From Dictyostelium discoideum (Eukaryota): a stretch of DNA of 64,000 nucleotides. How positions within the stretch are numbered: position 1 is the stretch's first letter; each line of letters starts with the position of its first letter. The stretch lies in assembly GCA_000004695.1 (NCBI GenBank), contig CM000153.2, positions 1,120,001 to 1,184,000 of the forward strand, in the 5' to 3' direction. The translations under genes were made by a program, and so were the position numbers. The notes beneath the pieces are model-generated. The model was not told where the DNA came from and made no database searches. It saw only the letters and a program-made list of their open reading frames with translations. Positions 1 to 13,349 of this stretch are shown piece after piece.

Positions 1-156
1 GAGTAAGAAAATAAAAAAAATAAAAATAAAAAAAATAAAAAAAAAAGTGAAAAAATGAAAAATAAAAAATTAAAAAAATAAAAAAAAAAATAAAAAAAGA
101 ATGACGTGCTTGACTCAACACTATTGAAAAAAGTTGGAAAACCACATAAAATTAAT

Positions 157-188
<32 letters not shown>

Positions 189-332
189 CTTCCCTTTTGA
201 CTCCTCTATGGATTAATTGAATTTTGGGTCCTAGATTTTTTTTTTTCTTTTTTTTTTATTATTATATACTATTTTGGATTTTTATTATATTTTATTTTTT
301 TTTTATGTTTTTTTTTCCATTATTTACTTATT

Positions 333-1659
<1,327 letters not shown>

Positions 1660-1772
1660 TTATTATTATTTATTAATATTATTGTTATTATTAAAAAAAG
1701 AAAAAGAAAAAGAAAATAGAAATTAAAAAAAAAAAAAAAAAAAAAAAAGAAAATAAAAAAATTAAAAATTAA

Positions 1773-1809
<37 letters not shown>

Positions 1810-1918
1810 ATCGTTTTTTCAAAATTCCTATAATTTTTAAATTTTTATTTTTTTTTTTTTTTTTTTTTAAATTACACACACAATTTTCTAGAAAAAGAAA
1901 AATAATAAAATAATAATA

Positions 1919-2338
1919 ATGTCAGATAATCCAAATCCAGTAATTTATGTTGATAATGAAAATTGTAAATCATTTGAAGATAATGAAAATTCATTCAATT
2001 CATCAAGATATTCAATTGAAGAAGATCAAATTGACGAATTCGATGAACAAGAGATATTCGATTTAGTTAGAAGTATAACAGATCCAGAACATCCATTAAC
2101 ATTGGAACAATTAAATGTGGTTAGAATTGAAAATGTTAATATCAATTTGGAAAATAGTTATATTTTACTATATTTCACACCAACAGTTCCACATTGTTCA
2201 ATGGCAAATTTAATTGGTTTATCAATTAAAGAGAAATTAGCAAGATCCTTACCAAAAAGATTTAAAGTTGATGTTATTGTTACTCCTGGTAGTCATTCTT
2301 CTGAATCTTCAGGTAAACTTTTTATTATTATTATTAAT

Positions 2339-2379
<41 letters not shown>

Positions 2380-2534
2380 ACTAATTATAATTTATTTTCT
2401 CTCTCTCTCTCTCTCTCTCCCTCAATATTCTATGTAATAGTAAACAAACAATTAAATGATAAAGAAAGAGTTTCAGCAGCATTAGATACAAGTTCTTCAA
2501 TTTTAACAATTGTAAATGAATGTATAAAGCAAAA

Positions 2535-2538
<4 letters not shown>
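1919..2538 (+). CDS. MIP18/FAM96/CIA2-family (DUF59) Fe-S assembly protein, 2 exons (1919..2312, 2441..2538)
   Basis: [16 protein letters not shown] is the hallmark DUF59/MIP18 motif. The donor is TCAG|GTAAAC (phase 1) and the acceptor is taatag|TA. Exon 2 encodes [33 protein letters not shown] (TC)9 tract lies in the intron. Confidence 0.8.
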
Positions 2539-2572
<34 letters not shown>

Positions 2573-2640
2573 ATAAATAGAAAAATAAAAATAAATTAAT
2601 TGTACATAGTAATTTTAAATAATAATAATAATAATTAAAA

Positions 2641-2720
2641 ACAAAAATTTGGGGGGAAGAGGGGAGAGACAGGGGGAGGTAGGGTCGTCCATCATCGGAC
2701 TTTTTTCCCCCTCCTCTCTA
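2641..2720. other. GC/G-rich inverted-repeat island in an AT-rich intergenic region
   Basis: ggggggaagaggggagagacagggggaggtagggtcgtccatcatcggacttttttccccctcctctctaaag. The G-rich arm and the CCCCCTCCTCTCT arm are partly complementary, and the element lies between two same-strand genes. Confidence 0.4.
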
Positions 2721-2898
2721 AAGTTTCACTGTTTAGAGATTTATTTTTTTTTTATTTTTTATTTTTTTTTTATTTTATTTTTTTTTTTATTTTTTTTTTT
2801 ATTTTTTTTATTTTAAAGTTCAATTTTGTTTTTTTTTTATTTTTTTTATTTTTTATTTTTTTATTCAAGCACATTTAATTTAAACACATTCATATTAA

Positions 2899-2992
2899 AT
2901 GTTAAGAAAAATGGAAACAGTTATTAAAGCACTTGCTGAAAATAAAATCTCTGATGTTATTTCTTTTACACCAAGTAAATATAAAAAATATT

Positions 2993-3023
<31 letters not shown>

Positions 3024-3829
3024 TTTTTAAAATATTCCCAATTTAAAACTATTATTAATATTATTATTATTTTATTAATCCAAAAATAAAAAATAAATAA
3101 ATAAATAAATAAATAAAAAAAGAGAAATTATTAACAGTTAAATACAATGGTAAAGAATTAAATATTAATGATACATTAACACCAACAATTGTCCAAAATA
3201 AACCACATGTATCATGGGATGCCAAAAATGATGAATTATATACTTTAATTTTTGATGACCCAGATGCACCAACCAGATCTGATCCAAAATTCGGTCAATG
3301 GAAACATTGGTTAGTAACCAACATTAAAGGTAATGATATTTCAACTGGTCAAGAATTAGCTGTAAGTACATATTCCTCCCCCCTCCCACCCCTTTCTATA
3401 TTATAAGATTTTAACTAATTAACTAATTAATCAATTAATTAATTAATTTTATTAGAAATACATTGGATCAGGTCCACCACCAAAAACTGGTTTACACAGA
3501 TACATTTTCATCTTATGTAAACAACCAGGTACTGAAAATATTGAATTCAAAGGAGAACATATTTTACCACTTTCGTAATTATTATTATTTTTTTTATTAT
3601 TATTATTATTTTTATTATTATTTATTATTATTATTATATTAATTAATTGGATTTTATAAATTTAAATAGAGCTGAATTAAGAAATAATTGGAATGCTGAA
3701 ACTTTCATTAAAAAATGGAATTTAGAACCAGAAGCTATCAACTTTTATCAAGCTGAATATGATGATTATGTTCCACAACTCTATGCCAAATTAGGTGAAA
3801 CTCAAGATAAACCAGTTGAAATTAAATAA
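2899..3829 (+). CDS. phosphatidylethanolamine-binding protein (PEBP/RKIP family), 4 exons (2899..2974, 3138..3361, 3456..3574, 3670..3829)
   Basis: DPDAPTRSDPKFGQWKHWLV and GSGPPPKTGLHRYIFILCKQ are the PEBP signature motifs. The donors are CCAA|GTAAAT, GCT|GTAAGT and TTTC|GTAATT. The acceptors are aacag, attag and aaatag. Confidence 0.85.
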
Positions 3830-4186
3830 ACAATTATTCAATATTCAACATTAACAAATAAGTAAATAAAGAAATTACCAAAAAATTTCCTTATTTGAAA
3901 ATAATAAATAAATTAATAAATAGATAATAATAAATAATAATTAAAAAAAGTGGGATGCGTATTTTTATTGAATTACTATCATTGTTTATAATAATAAGTT
4001 GTCGGTGTTGGTTGTTTAATTGATTGATTGATTGATTGTGTTGGTTGGTTGGGATTGTTTGATAAATTTAAATTGTTTCTGAAATATTATTTGTGTGTGT
4101 GTGGTGTATGTGTTATTCTATTCTATTCTATTATTATTTTTTTTTTTTTTATTATTTTATTTTATTTTATATTTTTTAAAGAATTT

Positions 4187-5447
<1,261 letters not shown>

Positions 5448-6398
5448 TTATGATGATGATGACGATGATGAGGATATTGTTGATGATGTTGATAATAAAT
5501 TAATCTGCTTTTTTTTGTTGTAGTCAAAAACAATGATTTTGAAATTTTAAAAAAAAAAATAAAAAAAAAAAAAAAAAAAATAAAATTTTTTTAAAAAAAA
5601 AAAAAATAAAAAAAAAATTCAAAAAAAAAAAAAAAAATTGAAAAATAAAAAAACATCCTCTGTCGGCTCATGAACATGAAAAAATAAATAAAAAAAAAAT
5701 GATTAAATAATAATCCATTGCACAAAATTCATTGTTTTAAATTTATATTTGCAAATTAAATTCTCAAATTTTAGTTTTTAATATTTTTAAAAATATAAAC
5801 TTTTAATTTTTTTTTTTTTTTTTAAAATGTTAAATTTTTAAAAATTATTTTATAAACCTTTTATTTTTTAAATTTTTTTTTTTTATTATGTATTTTGTAA
5901 ACCTTTTTTTTTTTTTTTTTTTTTTTATCTTTTAACACAAACCACACACACTTTTGTTTTGTATGTATATATATATTATATATATTTTTTTTTTCTTTTA
6001 CAAATAAAGTTTAGTAGATATAATTACAAATAAAAATAAAAAAATAAAAAAAAAAATAAAAAAAAAAAAAATGAAAAAAAAAAAACCTTTTAGAAATCAA
6101 AGTTCATTAATATTTTGTTGTTTTTAAAAGAAAAAATAAAAAAAAAAAAAAACATTAATAAAAAGGTAAATTTAATGTCACCAACAAATTACCATGTACA
6201 AATGAATCGTAAAATTTTATTTTGATATTTCCCAAAATGTGTCGCAATCTTTTTTTAAAATGATGATATTAAATAAAAAACAATAAAAAAACAATAAAAA
6301 AATAAAAACAAAACAAAACAAAACCAAAAAATCAGTTTTTTTTTTTTTTTATTTTTTTATTTTTTTTATTTTTTAATTTTAAAAAGTAATTTCAAAAA

Positions 6399-6532: not shown

Positions 6533-7306
6533 ATGGAAGCTAAAACTCAATTTGAATTAATAACAATTAAAAGTGAAGATGGATTTGATGAAAACGAACT
6601 TTCAGTTTTATTAAAAAGTGATAGTGATTTTCATATGAATGGATTCATTTGGGGTCATTTGGCAGCAAAACATGTATATTCTAAATTAAATAGTAAATTG
6701 AAATCATTTGAACCAAAATCCAGATCAGAAATTAATGAAATGATTAAAGCAATTACAGCAGTGACCGAATTCATAGAAGTGCATTACTACCATGAAGAAG
6801 AGATAGCATGGAAGTTTTTAATTGAGCAACAGCAATGTCTATCGGAACCATTATTGACCATTGTCAAACCTCAACATACTCAATGGACTGAGATTAATAA
6901 TGAAATGAAGGATTTGGTGAAATCGTTGACTGAAAACCAAGAAATTAAAGATAAATCATCAAATGGATGGACTGAATCAATTTCAAAAGTGAAAGAAATC
7001 CTTCAAAAATTGACAGCTATGGTTTATAAAAGTTTTTATGATGAAGAAAGAATTATTATACCTGTTGTTTTAAGTTCAATCCCAAAGAGTAAACAAAATA
7101 AATTGGGTGAGAAAATGAATGAAACTATGAAAAATGCACCAACTTCTAAATTTGTTTTAGGTGCAATCTTGGATGTTTGCAAAACTAATAAAGATTTAGA
7201 TGAAAATGTTAAAAAGGCAATTCCATGGGCTGTTAGAAAAGTAATTTTCCCATTAGCTCTTGAAAAGAATTATAATTGGTTCTCAGAATTTGTTGAAATT
7301 AAATAA
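6533..7306 (+). CDS. hypothetical protein with hemerythrin/HHE-like motifs, single exon, 257 aa
   Basis: Clean 257-aa ORF. HYYHEEEIAWKFL and FYDEERIIIPVVL resemble the HxxxEE..LFP cation-binding motifs of hemerythrin-like domains. The assignment is tentative. Confidence 0.5.
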   Translation: MEAKTQFELITIKSEDGFDENELSVLLKSDSDFHMNGFIWGHLAAKHVYSKLNSKLKSFEPKSRSEINEMIKAITAVTEFIEVHYYHEEEIAWKFLIEQQQCLSEPLLTIVKPQHTQWTEINNEMKDLVKSLTENQEIKDKSSNGWTESISKVKEILQKLTAMVYKSFYDEERIIIPVVLSSIPKSKQNKLGEKMNETMKNAPTSKFVLGAILDVCKTNKDLDENVKKAIPWAVRKVIFPLALEKNYNWFSEFVEIK

Positions 7307-7845
7307 ATTTTTTTAAGAAATCTATTTTTATTTTTATTTTTGATTATTATTTTTTTTATTTATTTTAATTGTCTCTTTTTAGTACTATGGAAATGTTATC
7401 ATTTTTATTTTTTATTTTTTTATTTTTTTTTTATTTTTTTTTTTTAAAACTGGTTAAATTGATGTTATTTAAAACAAAATTAATTTTTTTTTCTTGTTTA
7501 GAATAAAAACAAAAAAAAAAATGTTTTGAATTAAAACAAAAAAAAAAAAAAAAATATCTTTTTTCGTGCATTTTCATGAAAAAAAAACAAGATTTTTTAA
7601 TTTTTTTGTTTTAATTCAAAATAAATAAACAGGGTAAATTAAACCAGGAATGAAAATTTTTGATGGGTGGAAAAAATAAAAAAAAAAAAAAAAAAAATGA
7701 ATTGAAAAATTAAACAGTAAAAAAAAAAAAAAAACCAAAAAAAAAAAAAAAAAAAAATTAATATCAACGAAAAATATTATTAAGTTAAAAAAGAAGAAAA
7801 TTAAACAAATTAAAAAAATCGAAAAACCAAATAAATATAATAAAA

Positions 7846-8197
7846 TAATTAATAAAATAAAACAGATTAATTAAAAATAAATAAATATATTAATATTTAA
7901 ATAAATTAATAAATATATAAATAAATAAATAAATAAATAAATAAAATTAATTAAAAAAATTAATAAATAAATAAATTAATAAATAAATAAATAATAAATA
8001 AACAAATAAACAAATAAATAAACAAATAAAATTAATTAAATAAAAATTAATAAAAAATAAATAAATTATAAAAAAAAAAAAAAATAAATAAATAAATAAT
8101 AAATAAACAAATAAACAAATAAATAAACAAATAAAATTAATTTAATAAAAATTAATAAAAAATAAATAAATTATAAAAAAAAAAAAATATATATATA

Positions 8198-8252
<55 letters not shown>

Positions 8253-8254
8253 AA
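7846..8254. repeat. (AAAT)n/(AAATA)n microsatellite block ending directly at an ATG
   Basis: About 400 nt of aaataaataaat units with interruptions. Confidence 0.9.
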
Positions 8255-8694
8255 ATGAAAATATTTAAAAAAGTATTTTTATTTATTTTAATGATAACGA
8301 TATCATTCCTAAATATAGTTAAATCTACAGAAATTGATGAAAATAATAATAATAATAATAATAATAATTCGACATCATCATCAGAAAAAATAATAAAAGG
8401 AAAAGAAGATGAGGAAGAATTAAAAAATGCATTTTCAAGTTCAGTAATACCACCAACTGATCATAATAGTGAATTAAGAAGGAAAAAAGTTATAGCATCA
8501 ACAATTACTTTATTTGCATTTATTATTTTAGTACTTATAGTTAGTATTGTGGTTCGTCATGTTTTAAAAAAAAAGAAAAGAACAAAAAATAATTTTATAT
8601 TTTTAGATGATCAAAGTTTAAATGATTGTAACATAGAATTAAATGTATCATCTGAATACTTTTGTGATGAAAATAAATTATTAACCACCCACGA

Positions 8695-8698
<4 letters not shown>
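8255..8698 (+). CDS. small predicted type I membrane protein (signal peptide, poly-N, one TM, basic tail)
   Basis: [24 protein letters not shown] looks like a signal peptide. [22 protein letters not shown] followed by [11 protein letters not shown] looks like a transmembrane helix with a stop-transfer. No homology assignment. Confidence 0.35.
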
Positions 8699-8736
<38 letters not shown>

Positions 8737-9042
8737 AATTAAAAAAAAAAAGAAATTTCATTTTTTAAACACTCCCTTTTTTTATTTTTTTTATATTTTA
8801 ATTTTTAATTTTTAATCCTTTTTGGTAAAAGGATAAAAATAAAATTTTATTTTTTATTTTTTACTTTTTTATATTTTATATTTTAATAAATTTAAATCAA
8901 ATTTAATTAAATTTAAATAATAACTACCAACACATTATAATTATAAATTAATTAATTATAAAAAATAAAATAAAATAAAATAAAACAAAAAATTTGTAAA
9001 AATAAATTAATAATTCATTTATTTTTTTATATTTTTATATAT

Positions 9043-9090
<48 letters not shown>

Positions 9091-9094
<4 letters not shown>

Positions 9095-9650
9095 ATATTT
9101 GAAATGAATAATAATGAAATGATTAATATGATTAAAATTGATAATAATAGATTTTGAAAGATATTTCTAGCATCAGAGTATTGATGAGTATCATCAGATT
9201 GAGTTAGATATTTGAATACTTTTGATATACCACTTTTACCATGGGTTGTAACATTGATAAATATGATTTCACCATTTTTAATATTATTAAATGTATTATT
9301 TGTTGCTTGAATAAAACATGTAATCATTGTATCATTAATATACTTTGGTTCATTACAATTTAAAATATCACTACCATTACCATTACTATTACTACCAACT
9401 ATTGTTACTTTATCAATTGGATAATAGAAATCATTACCAATAATTGTTAAAATACCTCCTTGTTTTAAATTAACAATACTAGTTTGATTAATTGGTGGTG
9501 ATTTATAGATTATATTAAATGTTGATACTATTTTATTATTATCATTATTACTAAATGATAATGTACAAGTTTTATCATTTGGACGATTTAATTTAATGTT
9601 GCATTCTATTGATGTACTATTATTTAATTTACATTCGTATCGAATAAGTT
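9091..9650 (-). CDS. 3' terminal exon of an IPT/TIG-domain cell-surface protein; upstream exons not resolved
   Basis: The open frame encodes ...CKLNNSTSIECNIKLNRPNDKTCTLSFSNNDNNKIVSTF...LTIIGNDFYYPIDKVTIVGSNSNG...ITCFIQATNNTFNNIKNGEIIFINVTTHGKSG... and ends in the C-terminal TM LLLSILIILIISLLFISNI*. This is the Ig-like/TIG fold topology with N-glycosylation sequons, as in Dictyostelium tgr-type proteins. A stop lies immediately upstream in frame, so an acceptor must sit near 9640-9660. Confidence 0.45.
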
Positions 9651-9845
9651 TGGAATCGATACATTTTTAAAAATTGGTATTAATTAATATTTTTTAAAAT
9701 TTAAATAAAAAAAAATAAAAATTGGTGTAAGTGGGTTTTAAGAACTTTTTTTCTATTTTTAACTTTGAATTGCATAATGATGTTTTAAATAGAAATGATA
9801 ACAATTTTTTTTTTTTTTTTTAATTTTTTTTTTTTTATTTTTTAA

Positions 9846-10278
<433 letters not shown>

Positions 10279-10787
10279 TAAAATAAAATTAATAGGCAAA
10301 ATTATCAATAATCTTTTATTACTATTTATTATTTATTATTTATTAACTTGTAGTTTTAAAATGATTAGATAAATCTTGGACATTGAATTTTTCCAAATTA
10401 AATCTTGTATTTATATAACTTTCAGGAATGATTGGATATAGATGGTTGACTCTTTTGTTTATTATATTGACCATTAAAAGTTGATAATAAATTATTTTGT
10501 TGTGATTGTTGTTGTAGTTGTTGTGCTTGTAATGCTGCTTTCTTTTTTAGTTAAAATTGTAATTGTTTGAACTGGTTGTTTTTGACTTTGATGCTGTTGT
10601 TGTTGTTGTTGTTGTCCTCTAGAGGTGAAGTAGGTGGAGAAATTGGATAAGGTGAATATTGATTATTTACCTGTAAATTATTAGTCTTATTTTTATTATT
10701 TGATTTTGGTGAAACATTTTATTGTTGTTGTTGTTGTTATTGTTGATTATTATTATTTGGTGTTTGAGGTTGTATTTGTTGCACCTG

Positions 10788-10979
10788 TTACCAATTGTTG
10801 GTAGGTGAATTGATTACCACCCATTCAATTTTACCAATTTCTTTTCTAGTACGTGGATAGAAGTAAGTCTCTTTGAAAACTTCACGAATTGCACAAACTG
10901 AATCGGGTTCATCCTTATTGACTTTACCTTTCGGGAAACCTATTGTTACTACCATTTCCCTTAAACGAATGTTGTTCAA
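10788..10979 (-). pseudogene. DCP2-like Nudix-box fragment with an internal deletion, embedded in decayed multi-frame low-complexity ORF pieces (about 10300-11200)
   Basis: GFPKGKVNKDEPDSVCAIREVFKET...YPRTRKEIGKIEWV matches the DCP2 Nudix box (GFPKGK..E..DCAIREV.EETGF) and Box-B (F.P.TR.EI..IEW). About 35 residues between them are missing. Stops and frame changes flank the fragment on both sides. Confidence 0.4.
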
Positions 10980-11709
10980 ATAATGCTTGATGATGGGGAT
11001 GCATATGAGGTGGCATTAACATACCATCTGACTCATGCATTGAATCCGTTTGTATGTGAATGAGGTGGTGCTGGTGCAAACATATTATTTGGTGGTTGCA
11101 TAAAATGATGTGGTGACATTATTTGTTGTGGTAGTGACTGTGGTTGAAATTGTTTCAAAATTAATAATTCAGAAGTAATGTTTATCGTCTTACTATTTTG
11201 GTATTTTTATATAATAATTTCAGTTTTTTTAAGTTTCATTAATTTTTATAATCTTATAAACACTTTTTTTTATATAAAAAGAAATTTAATTCTAAAAATG
11301 GTTATATACGATTAGAAATTAATTATCATAATAATAATAAAAAAAAAAAAAAAAAAAAAAATTATTAATAATTTTGAAAATAATAACAATTACAACAACA
11401 ACAACAAAAATAAAAATAATATAAACCAACCTCTACAATTACATTCATTGGTGATGATCTAATCATTAACAATTTGGGAAAAAAAAAAAAAAATGAATTA
11501 AAAAAAAAAAAAAAAATAAAAATAAAAATAATTGTGTTAATAAAATTATTATATCTTAAAATATGAAAAATAAAATTAAATAAATTAGATATCACCAACA
11601 AGAATTTAAACAAAAAAAAAAAAAAAAAAAAAAAAAAAATTAAAAAAAAAAAAATTTAATTATTATCAATTTAATAATAAATATCTTGAATTTAAAATTA
11701 TTTTATAAT

Positions 11710-11746
<37 letters not shown>

Positions 11747-12284
11747 GAATCAACCCAATTAATTTATTTTGGGTTAAATTTAAAAATAAAAAAAAAGAAT
11801 AATTGTGTATTATTATTTTTGTTTAGTTACTAATATATACTAATTACTTTAAAATATTGGGTGTAAATAATATTATCATAAAATTAAAAATAGAAATAAA
11901 AAAAAATAATTAAAATAAAAAAAAAAATAAAAAAAAATAAAAAAAAATAAAAAAAAAAATAAAAAAAATAAAAAAAAAAATACGTTTTCTATAACTGATA
12001 AACCAAAATCATTTTCAAATAAAATTTTCCAAAAAAAAAAAAAAAAAAAAATTCAAAATAAATTCAGAAAAAAATTAAAAAAAAAAAAAAAAAAAAATTC
12101 TGATAGTGTGCGACCACAGAATTTTATTTTTAATATTATTTTTATTTTTTTTTTTATATATTAATATCTCAAAAATATAAAACCAATAAAAAAAAAAAAA
12201 AAAAAAAAAAAAAATTAAAATTTTTATTTTTTATACAACCAAAACTATATAAATAAATATATATAAATATAATTACAATTTAAA

Positions 12285-13349
12285 ATGTACTCACCAGAAG
12301 ATTTAGAATATAGAGAACAACAACGTTTAAGTAAAGCATTACAAGGTAAATTAGGTGGTGCAAGCTCAAGAAAATCATGGGCACCAGTTGTAACAGGTAA
12401 ACCACAAACACATAGTGCACCAGTTAATAGTTCATTTGCATCAATTTCAATTTCAGATAAGCACCACGAATCACCATCAACAACAACATCATCACCATCA
12501 ACATCATCAGGTGTTGATAATAGTTCAATCTATCCAGGTGCAATCGTTGAGGATAAAGTTAAATCACAAGAAGCACACCGTTTGAAAAAGATGGGTCTTT
12601 CAACTGAAGAAGATGAATCAACCGCTCATATTCCAGCATATACTTCATTAAATTCATCATCCTCATCCACCATCTCAAAGAGTAATAGCAATCAAAGCCT
12701 TGCAAAGGAAACCAGTAGTAACAACCTCTTGCAATATCAATCACCAGTTAGAGTAGCCAGCTCAACATCATCTGAGAATTTAGTCGATAGTGCTTCCATT
12801 ATGAACAACGTTGATTCTCATACCTCTGAAGAGAAAATGAAGCAAGAGGCAAAGAGATTAGAAAGATGGGGTTTAAAGATTAACTCACCAACTGCTACCT
12901 CACCAAGCACTACCTCACCACCAGTCTCTAGTACCACTCCGGTTGCACCAGTGACTCCAACCGAACAATCTGTACCACAATCTCCATTCTCAACTGGTGC
13001 TGCCGTCTCTGTCAATCAAAGTCATAGCAATCTCCCAATCGCTACTACCCAACAATTCCTTGATCGTATCGTTCTCTCTGCTAAATCCGTTAAACAAATC
13101 ATTCAAAAGAAAACCTCTAATCGTGATATTGTCATCTCTATTCTCATGGATTTAGTAAAGGAATCTGCAAACTTTGGTATGACTCTCTCTTCAACTACCC
13201 CAATGTCTTTCGATATCTCTCAAAATGCTGGTAAACTCGCTGGTGCTGTCAATGAATTAGTTAAAGACACTGCTCACGAAAATAATAAAATCTTTGATGA
13301 AATTCAAGTACTCTTAGGTTTATTATATTTAGCTGTTGTTGCTAATTAG
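12285..13349 (+). CDS. Ser/Thr-rich hypothetical protein (354 aa) with codon usage typical of highly expressed genes
   Basis: Single clean ORF. Codon use is strongly biased to C-ending codons (ACC, TCC, ATC, CTC, GTC), which is unusual locally. It contains an internal duplicated motif: KSQEAHRLKKMGL and KQEAKRLERWGL. Confidence 0.6.
   Translation: MYSPEDLEYREQQRLSKALQGKLGGASSRKSWAPVVTGKPQTHSAPVNSSFASISISDKHHESPSTTTSSPSTSSGVDNSSIYPGAIVEDKVKSQEAHRLKKMGLSTEEDESTAHIPAYTSLNSSSSSTISKSNSNQSLAKETSSNNLLQYQSPVRVASSTSSENLVDSASIMNNVDSHTSEEKMKQEAKRLERWGLKINSPTATSPSTTSPPVSSTTPVAPVTPTEQSVPQSPFSTGAAVSVNQSHSNLPIATTQQFLDRIVLSAKSVKQIIQKKTSNRDIVISILMDLVKESANFGMTLSSTTPMSFDISQNAGKLAGAVNELVKDTAHENNKIFDEIQVLLGLLYLAVVAN

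Follow-up and report, generated by a model that had tools for sequence, protein, structure and literature searches.

A Nudix-box fragment on Dictyostelium discoideum chromosome 4 is very probably a decayed, unprocessed dcp2 pseudogene

What is the origin of a short minus-strand open reading frame (ORF 10788-10979) that resembles part of a Nudix hydrolase in a 64,000-nucleotide stretch of D. discoideum DNA (contig CM000153.2, positions 1,120,001 to 1,184,000; hereafter the window), and could it still contribute to a working decapping enzyme? Its translation contains GFPKGKVNKDEPDSVCAIREVFKETYFYPRTRKEIGKIEWV and is 100% identical to a portion of the 85-aa protein annotated for DDB_G0283809 in D. 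discoideum AX4 (XP_638877.1; UniProt (UniRef) Q54QJ4), which is named "Nudix hydrolase domain-containing protein". The ORF matches the Pfam NUDIX profile at positions 32-69 of 134 only (E=1.7e-4, 22 bits for a gathering cut-off of 21.1 bits). Among PDB sequences, its top 14 matches are all Dcp2 chains, and HMMER aligned it with the Schizosaccharomyces pombe Dcp2 chain 5j3t_B (E=5e-11) over residues 124-154 and 179-199, which are contiguous in the query. A tblastn search with a human DCP2 query, taken as a lead only, gave one match in the window, interrupted by a gap of 35 residues; compared with intact Dictyostelium dcp2, the missing Nudix stretch amounts to exactly 105 bp, i.e., 35 codons. 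The Pfam, PDB and parent comparisons thus agree with the observation, made in an initial sequence-only reading of the window, of a Dcp2-type Nudix box directly fused to a later Dcp2 motif with 35 residues absent between them. This Nudix observation is genuine and well above chance level.

A complete Nudix alpha/beta/alpha fold comprises about 130 residues, and the Nudix box of Nudix hydrolases follows the motif GX5EX7REUXEEXGU. The fragment does not encode a complete fold: the N- and C-terminal parts are missing besides the 35 internal residues. Within the Nudix box, the parental REVFEETSF has become REVFKETYF: of the two adjacent glutamates of the catalytic EE pair, the first is now Lys (REVFEET to REVFKET), and a deletion junction stands in place of the xGU end. 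Box A (PF05026), present in the parent, is absent from the fragment and from the entire window, having been removed by junction J4 (table). The C-terminal helix of the Nudix fold, which is positively charged and binds RNA, is named Box B (PMC2248764, PMC5861098). The peptide YPRTRKEIGKIEWV, initially taken for this helix, sits in the stretch aligned to residues 179-199 of S. pombe Dcp2, upstream of Box B; the parental Box B, FYRSFPFFNRLRKWVQLRKL, pairs with residues 219-238 of S. pombe Dcp2 and lies in the 214 bp lost at J6. In addition, three frameshifting junctions and a stop leave no continuous reading frame in the fragment. Judging from its sequence, the fragment is therefore predicted to encode no functional decapping protein and does not belong to the functional Dcp2 family.

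The intact parent was found in related assemblies. The joined non-homopolymer pieces of the region, used as a query, retrieved a 176-aa D. discoideum protein (P0002) in which both upstream peptides are complete and collinear. Its contig (L001; 8,364 bp, GCA_054859355.1) carries the whole dcp2 gene at 2750-5017. This gene has two introns and encodes a Q/P/H-rich N-terminal extension, Box A, the full Nudix domain, a long tract of poly-Q/H and the same C-terminus as the fragment (YPIIPESYINTRFNLEKFNVQDLSNHFKTTS, followed by the stop codon). Its exon-3 product gives a match to Box A and to the full NUDIX profile (49 bits). One extra C at position 3266 of L001 breaks the dcp2 frame into 176-aa and 520-aa products; it is missing in a second locus, L005, and is probably an assembly error. 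L005 was located via P0347, which belongs to the same protein cluster as P0002, and carries at 917-3053 an intact three-exon dcp2 ORF of 638 aa. The 184-aa product P0347 was itself considered as the parent and rejected, as it derives from a second partial copy, the real parent being located 9 kb upstream at the same locus. The parental catalytic domain is identical in L001 and L005 and aligns without any gap to residues 95-238 of S. pombe Dcp2 (E=6.6e-42). An exhaustive HMMER protein search also found the DCP2 of D. purpureum (P0124); word-index searches missed all dictyostelid DCP2, this one included, so that the lack of an AX4 DCP2 among their results carries no weight.

In a bioRxiv study, the Dictyostelium DCP2 orthologue was described as having an unusually long N-terminus before Box A. 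Furthermore, for AX4, a published BLASTP table (PMC5862402, S5 Table C) contains the entries XP_639160.2 ("mRNA-decapping enzyme 2 [D. discoideum AX4]", E=1e-48) as well as XP_644425.1, both distinct from the fragment. AX4 is thus listed with a separate DCP2 besides the intact dcp2 of the related assemblies, and decapping is predicted to be done by an intact dcp2 elsewhere, whose AX4 copy is known from this table and from the other assemblies. With an intact 638-aa dcp2 at another locus in related assemblies, the proposal that the region is a pseudogenised dcp2 paralog encoding no active decapping enzyme is upheld.

Comparison with the parent accounts for the whole region. Nine blocks of L001 dcp2 (2821-5017) occur in order on the minus strand of the window (11153-10343) with 81-98% identity, separated by eight indel junctions, and represent about 41% of the dcp2 coding sequence (table). 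This map was obtained by blastn and by affine-gap alignment with cheap gap extension; MAFFT placed the 5' blocks wrongly. The G+C content of the window is about 20%; it contains long tracts of poly-A/T as well as microsatellites of the AAT/CAA type, and unless they are masked, AAT/CAA repeats dominate the blastn matches between L001 and the window.

Table. Features of the dcp2 remnant and of its surroundings in the window, and of the parental locus L005 (J, junction between blocks)
Sequence	Feature	Position	Strand	Lost or gained	Remarks
Window	Block 1, N-terminal low-complexity extension remnant	11095..11153	-		parent L001 2821-2879, 85% identity (blastn); 5' homology edge
Window	J1			16-18 bp lost	within CAA/CCA repeat
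Window	Blocks 2-4, further N-terminal extension	10968..11096	-		parent L001 2896-2951, 2969-3012, 3058-3086; split by J2 and J3
Window	J2			17 bp lost	frameshift
Window	J3			45 bp lost	in frame; window lineage only
Window	J4	10962..10967	-	~725 bp lost	exon 1 end to first Nudix strands, with both introns, exon 2 and all of Box A; ATT microhomology; frameshift
Window	Block 5, Nudix-box helix remnant GFPKGKVNKDEPDSVCAIREVFKE	10869..10961	-		E->K, D->V, window-specific 5-nt deletion
Window	J5	10865..10873	-	105 bp (35 codons) lost	in frame, within Nudix fold; between imperfect 10-bp direct repeats GAAGAGACTT / GAAGAAACTT of parent
Window	Block 6, conserved strand motif YFYPRTRKEIGKIEWVVIN	10790..10868	-		aligns with S. 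pombe Dcp2 179-199; ends at J6
Window	J6			214 bp lost	includes Box B helix; frameshift
Window	Blocks 7-8, Q/N-rich linker remnant	10612..10789	-		J7 insertion; in-frame stop near 10719-10721; ends at J8
Window	J7			18 bp gained	CAA repeat
Window	J8			279 bp lost	poly-Q/H tract contraction
Window	Block 9, C-terminal region and parental stop codon	10343..10611	-		blastn and alignment to parent
Window	3' flank of parental dcp2	10118..10342	-		includes (ATT)n microsatellite 10133-10265
Window	Low-complexity remnant of convergent TIG gene 3' end	9870..10117	-		matches gene adjoining dcp2 at parental locus
Window	TgrO1-like gene 3' remnant, far end of duplicated segment	8905..9711	-		comparison with L003
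Window	Gene model DDB_G0283809, 85 aa	10422..10955	-		exon 1 10955-10818, exon 2 10541-10422
L005	L001 orthologue including intact dcp2	10-6020			~91% identity
L005	Convergent TIG gene	3112-5688
L005	TgrO1-like gene	6654-9292
L005	Second partial dcp2 copy fused to TIG piece	~9520-11990			5' UTR, N-terminus, both introns, Box A
L005	Further TgrO1-like genes	after second partial dcp2 copy

Three-frame translation retrieves the ORF pieces quoted in the sequence-only reading upstream and downstream of the Nudix box. They are spread over three reading frames because of the junction frameshifts, and they are not unrelated low-complexity debris: by blastn and affine-gap alignment, every piece is a collinear dcp2 remnant. 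The paralog is not rearranged either, since its order is strictly collinear with that of the parent and the differences are deletions. Inside the blocks, there are 5.1% mismatches, six small indels and one CAA-to-TAA stop. A window-specific 5-nt deletion before GTTTCCC removes the Trp of WGFPKGK. In block 9, the last 31 residues are the same as in the parent, and several 1-2-nt indels upstream of them disrupt the frame. Alignment of the 5' boundary places the edge of homology about 72 nt past the parental ATG, the promoter, the ATG and about the first 24 codons being absent; the parental promoter and start codon were therefore never in the copy. A tblastn search with the intact 638-aa parent found no other dcp2 sequence in the 64-kb window. 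Since the missing dcp2 segments occur nowhere in these 64 kb, a spliced rescue of the fragment that would restore a complete Nudix fold is impossible.

The homology also extends beyond the gene. The locus had been delimited to 10300-11200, which is too narrow for its span: dcp2 DNA runs from 11153 to about 10118 and a co-duplicated remnant continues to about 8905. The segment 10312-9870 of the window matches L003 10918-11345 at 83%, and L001 5148-5336 matches 10017-9870. The TgrO1-like remnant is annotated as a 163-aa gene in L002, a syntenic locus of another assembly (see below), and gave no match in a Pfam search. Rfam and tRNA scans of positions 8000-13000 of the window found nothing.

The exhaustive HMMER search revealed two more gene models with the same internal deletion, P0122 (ACTFIT_006621; locus L002) and P0123 (ACTFIR_010240; locus L003), each on a contig of chromosome size. 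Both loci show synteny with the window: Actin and Dus are followed by a gene of about 354 aa and then by the fragment. L002 is 99.3% identical to the window across 20.6 kb and L003 represents a diverged lineage. Base-level alignment indicates that J2, J4, J5, J6, the TAA stop and the E-to-K change are base-identical in the window and L003. Other lesions are private to the window lineage (J3, J1 and J8 in part, and the 5-nt deletion preceding GTTTCCC) or to L003 (including a TGA at the Trp codon of WGFPKGK). Moreover, about 4.5 kb (L003 11345-15855), located between the TIG and TgrO1-like remnants, were lost from AX4.

Evolutionary distances were calculated on 760-790 shared sites, and dN/dS by the Nei-Gojobori method in the parental frame. 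The parents differ from each other by 1.0%, the fragments from each other by 2.8%, and fragments from parents by 4.9-6.9%. These distances put the fragments in one clade, which indicates a single duplication older than the lineage split; the parent-fragment dS of about 0.14 (dN/dS 0.24-0.38) suggests that it is roughly 2-3 times older than this split. Between the two fragments, dS is 0.021 and dN/dS is 1.44 (Nd 18, Sd 3; changes at the three codon positions 8/9/4), compared to a dS of 0.041 and a dN/dS of 0.08 between the parents and to 0.064 and 0.16, respectively, for the neighbouring 354-aa gene. Considering substitutions only, the dcp2 remnant has diverged between lineages by 2.7% versus 2.4% for flanking intergenic DNA (p=0.68), with 16 gap events in the remnant, many of which are not multiples of three, and the changes on terminal branches are consistent with neutrality (p=0.78). 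Therefore, the fragment drifts like non-coding DNA. The BLAST divergence of about 10% between the window and L003 had made the fragment appear oddly conserved, an impression dispelled by the substitution-only intergenic divergence of only 2.4%.

The arrangement of L005 and L003, which lie on the same 5.63-Mb contig, tells how the copy arose. L003 9827-16539 is collinear with L005 991-9367 over dcp2, TIG and a TgrO1-like gene, and this collinearity points to a segmental duplication of DNA of about 8.4 kb and not to retroposition. On this contig, parent and fragment are about 0.67 Mb apart and in the same orientation; of the duplicated segment, only the two ends remain in the window, one from 11153 to about 9870 and the other from 9711 to about 8905. 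The gene upstream of dcp2 in L001 is homologous to that upstream of D. purpureum dcp2, which suggests that dcp2 originally resided at the L001/L005 site and that its site in the window is derived. L001 was also considered as an allele of the window locus; this was rejected since the upstream flanks are unrelated and synteny with D. purpureum puts L001 at the ancestral site.

Taken together, the minus strand of the window from 11153 to about 8905 very probably harbors a decayed unprocessed dcp2 pseudogene that originates from a segmental duplication and is drifting neutrally. Its direct foundations are the map of homologous blocks with its junctions, the lesions common to both lineages, evolution at a neutral rate and the presence of an intact dcp2 in related assemblies. 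An intrachromosomal duplication of about 8.4 kb would have copied a 5'-truncated dcp2, the convergent TIG gene and the TgrO1-like gene, and the duplicate would have been inserted between the 354-aa gene and a 147-aa gene of D. discoideum chromosome 4. The dcp2 part would have arrived without promoter, start codon and about the first 24 codons. Later deletions would then have removed Box A, both introns, the 35 Nudix codons, the Box B helix and most of the poly-Q tract; several of them are flanked by short direct repeats or microhomology, suggesting slippage or microhomology as their cause. The frameshifts, the stop codon and the Glu-to-Lys change in the catalytic EE pair would have been acquired as well. 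As for direction and mechanism, we infer that dcp2 hitch-hiked with a duplication-prone Tgr cluster. The fragment is presumably not expressed.

Other origins have to be weighed against this one. DDB_G0283809 could be a real small coding gene, specifying a truncated Nudix-like protein or a new low-complexity protein that co-opted a dcp2 remnant: it has an AX4 annotation and a UniProt entry, its ORF has an ATG and exceeds the Pfam NUDIX threshold slightly, and products are also predicted in two other assemblies. However, these three annotations (AX4, P0122 and P0123) are mutually incompatible and have no common exon structure. The AX4 ATG is in frame solely via the window-specific 5-nt deletion, L003 has its TGA at the parental Trp codon, the parental promoter is absent, and the Nudix match is limited to profile positions 32-69 of 134 with one catalytic Glu lost. 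The 'intron' of the model (10817-10542, 276 nt), which joins ...KIEWV to KAALQAQQ..., derives from dcp2 coding sequence. Together with the dN/dS of 1.44 and the 16 gap events between lineages, this makes a real gene very unlikely, and we judge the DDB_G0283809 model to be a gene-finder artefact over a pseudogene; a literature search found no paper mentioning it. The suggestion in the sequence-only reading that a new low-complexity gene had captured a Nudix remnant fails likewise, since the low-complexity parts are themselves dcp2 and the region evolves neutrally. A retrocopy of dcp2 mRNA (processed pseudogene) would be in line with the lack of intron sequence in the window copy and with its 5' truncation, which many retrocopies show. 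The absence of introns is nevertheless uninformative because both lie inside the ~725-bp J4, which also takes exon sequence on both sides, and the second partial copy at the parental locus keeps both introns. Furthermore, the homology does not stop with the dcp2 coding sequence but takes in the TIG and TgrO1-like genes, arranged and oriented as at the parental locus; its 3' end has no poly(A), and the (ATT)n microsatellite that closes the 3' flank is also present in the parent. Retroposition is thus hardly credible.

Persistence of the fragment since before the split of the two lineages, and a C-terminal block that is near-parental in the AX4 lineage as expected from ectopic gene conversion, could also suggest that it was kept for a regulatory, non-coding role (for instance, by giving rise to antisense or small RNAs directed at dcp2) or as a gene-conversion partner. 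However, it accumulates substitutions at the same rate as intergenic DNA, decay is independent and ongoing in both lineages, the Rfam and tRNA searches were negative, and persistence at a neutral divergence of 2-3% requires no selection, so that such a retention is extremely improbable. Some details of the substitution pattern bear on this point. On the shared stem branch, 14/29 changes are synonymous versus about 9 expected under dead-on-arrival (one-sided p=0.035, small counts); stem changes reach 6.5% in the N-terminal blocks versus 1.5% in the C-terminal block (p=0.008, small counts); and private changes in the C-terminal block number 11 in L003 versus one in the window, again small counts. 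The synonymous excess on the stem and the C-terminal pattern are compatible either with a brief constraint or with ectopic conversion of the AX4-lineage copy by the parental gene. It is unlikely, if somewhat less so than the readings above, that the duplicate was once briefly coding-constrained, or is still exchanging sequence with the essential dcp2 gene by ectopic conversion or yielding antisense or small RNAs; if this were true, the pseudogene would be a modifier of the sequence or dosage of the decapping enzyme. Finally, we give no credence to an artefact of AX4 assembly or sequencing in which the true dcp2 locus would have been collapsed or rendered chimeric: the long flanking microsatellites and AT-rich repeats are difficult to assemble, but two independent assemblies of chromosome scale, one of which represents a diverged lineage, have identical junctions at the syntenic position, and the flanks in the window are not homologous to those of the parental locus.

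The preferred reading, a decayed copy made by segmental duplication, fits what is known of unprocessed pseudogenes. Like them, the fragment is a partial DNA copy accompanied by neighbours and intergenic DNA, carries disabling lesions, evolves neutrally and has its parent on the same chromosome; it differs from them in nothing essential, being only unusually fragmented and still annotated as protein-coding. With processed pseudogenes, it shares the 5' truncation and the lack of intron sequence, but it differs from them by the homology to neighbouring genes, the absence of a poly(A) tail and the probable loss of the intron region within a larger deletion and not by splicing. Compared to Dcp2/NUDT20 enzymes (PF05026 Box A and PF00293 NUDIX), it has retained the helix of the Nudix box and the strand motif RTRKEIxKIEW, but Box A, the initial Nudix strands, 35 internal residues and Box B are missing, EE is changed to KE and the frame is broken.

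The Dictyostelium Tgr genes (TIG/IPT-domain, TgrO1-like) form a large, fast-evolving family with many duplicates and pseudogenes. The parental dcp2 lies within a TgrO1-like/TIG cluster and pieces of it have been copied twice alongside, while the window retains a Tgr 3' remnant and shows the 4.5-kb presence/absence difference with L003; dcp2 itself is a passenger and not a Tgr gene. This arrangement suggests that instability of the Tgr cluster was the source of the duplication.

The main value of this finding is an annotation correction. DDB_G0283809 should be flagged as a dcp2 pseudogene and should not be counted among the Nudix hydrolases or decapping factors of Dictyostelium, and the models ACTFIT_006621 and ACTFIR_010240 in two newer D. 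discoideum assemblies are equally spurious. Current understanding is not challenged, as this is an ordinary unprocessed pseudogene, a fresh instance of a well-known kind. Nevertheless, it provides a time-stamped case of a housekeeping gene located beside a duplication-prone Tgr cluster and copied as a passenger, and its shared and private deletions, several of them at short repeats, show the stepwise whittling of such a copy in an AT-rich genome.

The assembly GCA_054859385.1, which carries both the locus with the intact, parental-type dcp2 (L005) and the locus syntenic with the window's fragment (L003, ACTFIR), is labelled D. discoideum. Compared with AX4-type sequence, it shows a dS of 0.04-0.06 in genes, 2-3% intergenic substitutions and very numerous indels, with a BLAST identity of only ~90%. 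From these sequence comparisons, the assembly seems to represent a lineage that has clearly diverged from the AX4 type.

Divergence is unevenly distributed along the decayed dcp2 fragment. On the stem common to the window and L003 fragments, it amounts to 1.5% in the C-terminal block (window 10343-10611) compared to 6.5% in the N-terminal blocks. Within the C-terminal block, the AX4-lineage copy has one private change and the L003 copy 11, the former being much nearer to the parent than the latter. This block is possibly an ectopic gene-conversion tract, for which dcp2 would be the donor and the pseudogene the recipient.

The L005 locus also harbors a second partial copy of dcp2 (see table) that retains the 5′ UTR, the N-terminal extension, both introns and Box A (P0347, PF05026), and in which the start codon region is deleted and the remaining sequence is joined to a TIG gene fragment. 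With a divergence from the parents of just 1.6%, this copy must be much younger than the window's fragment. On the 8.4-kb contig L001, which carries parental dcp2, one extra C at position 3266 compared to L005 introduces a frameshift in an otherwise intact gene; because of this frameshift, dcp2 is annotated there as separate products of 176 and 520 aa. The extra C is probably an assembly error. At the protein level, the word-index search retrieved no dictyostelid DCP2, although the searched collection holds a ~85%-identical D. purpureum protein that was recovered by an exhaustive HMMER search; this word index may miss poly-Q/N-rich proteins.

Features of the window and of the L005 locus
Feature	Location	Strand	Remark
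Second partial dcp2 copy	L005 ~9520-11990		9 kb downstream of intact dcp2
Long trinucleotide microsatellite (ATT/ATA) x44	window 10133-10265		also present in the 3′ flank of parental dcp2
Long trinucleotide microsatellite (AAT) x45	window 9883-10017		equivalent to the poly-Asn tail of the adjacent TIG gene
TgrO1-like gene, 3′ remnant	window 8905-9711	-	ends in a transmembrane-like tail ...LLLSILIILIISLLFISNI*

The ACTFIR lineage has a segment of ~4.5 kb (L003 11345-15855) that AX4 and L002, the corresponding ACTFIT locus, both lack; its site lies at window 9870-9711. Two TIG gene models are located in this segment, together with the greater part of an 816-aa TgrO1-like gene. The assembled sequences differ here in the structure of a Tgr-type locus. 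The TgrO1-like 3′ remnant, annotated in L002 as a 163-aa gene, differs from its L003 counterpart by 7.3% substitutions. Since substitutions are three times as frequent here as in intergenic DNA (p<0.001), the high divergence of the remnant suggests either rapid evolution of Tgr genes or replacement by a paralogue.
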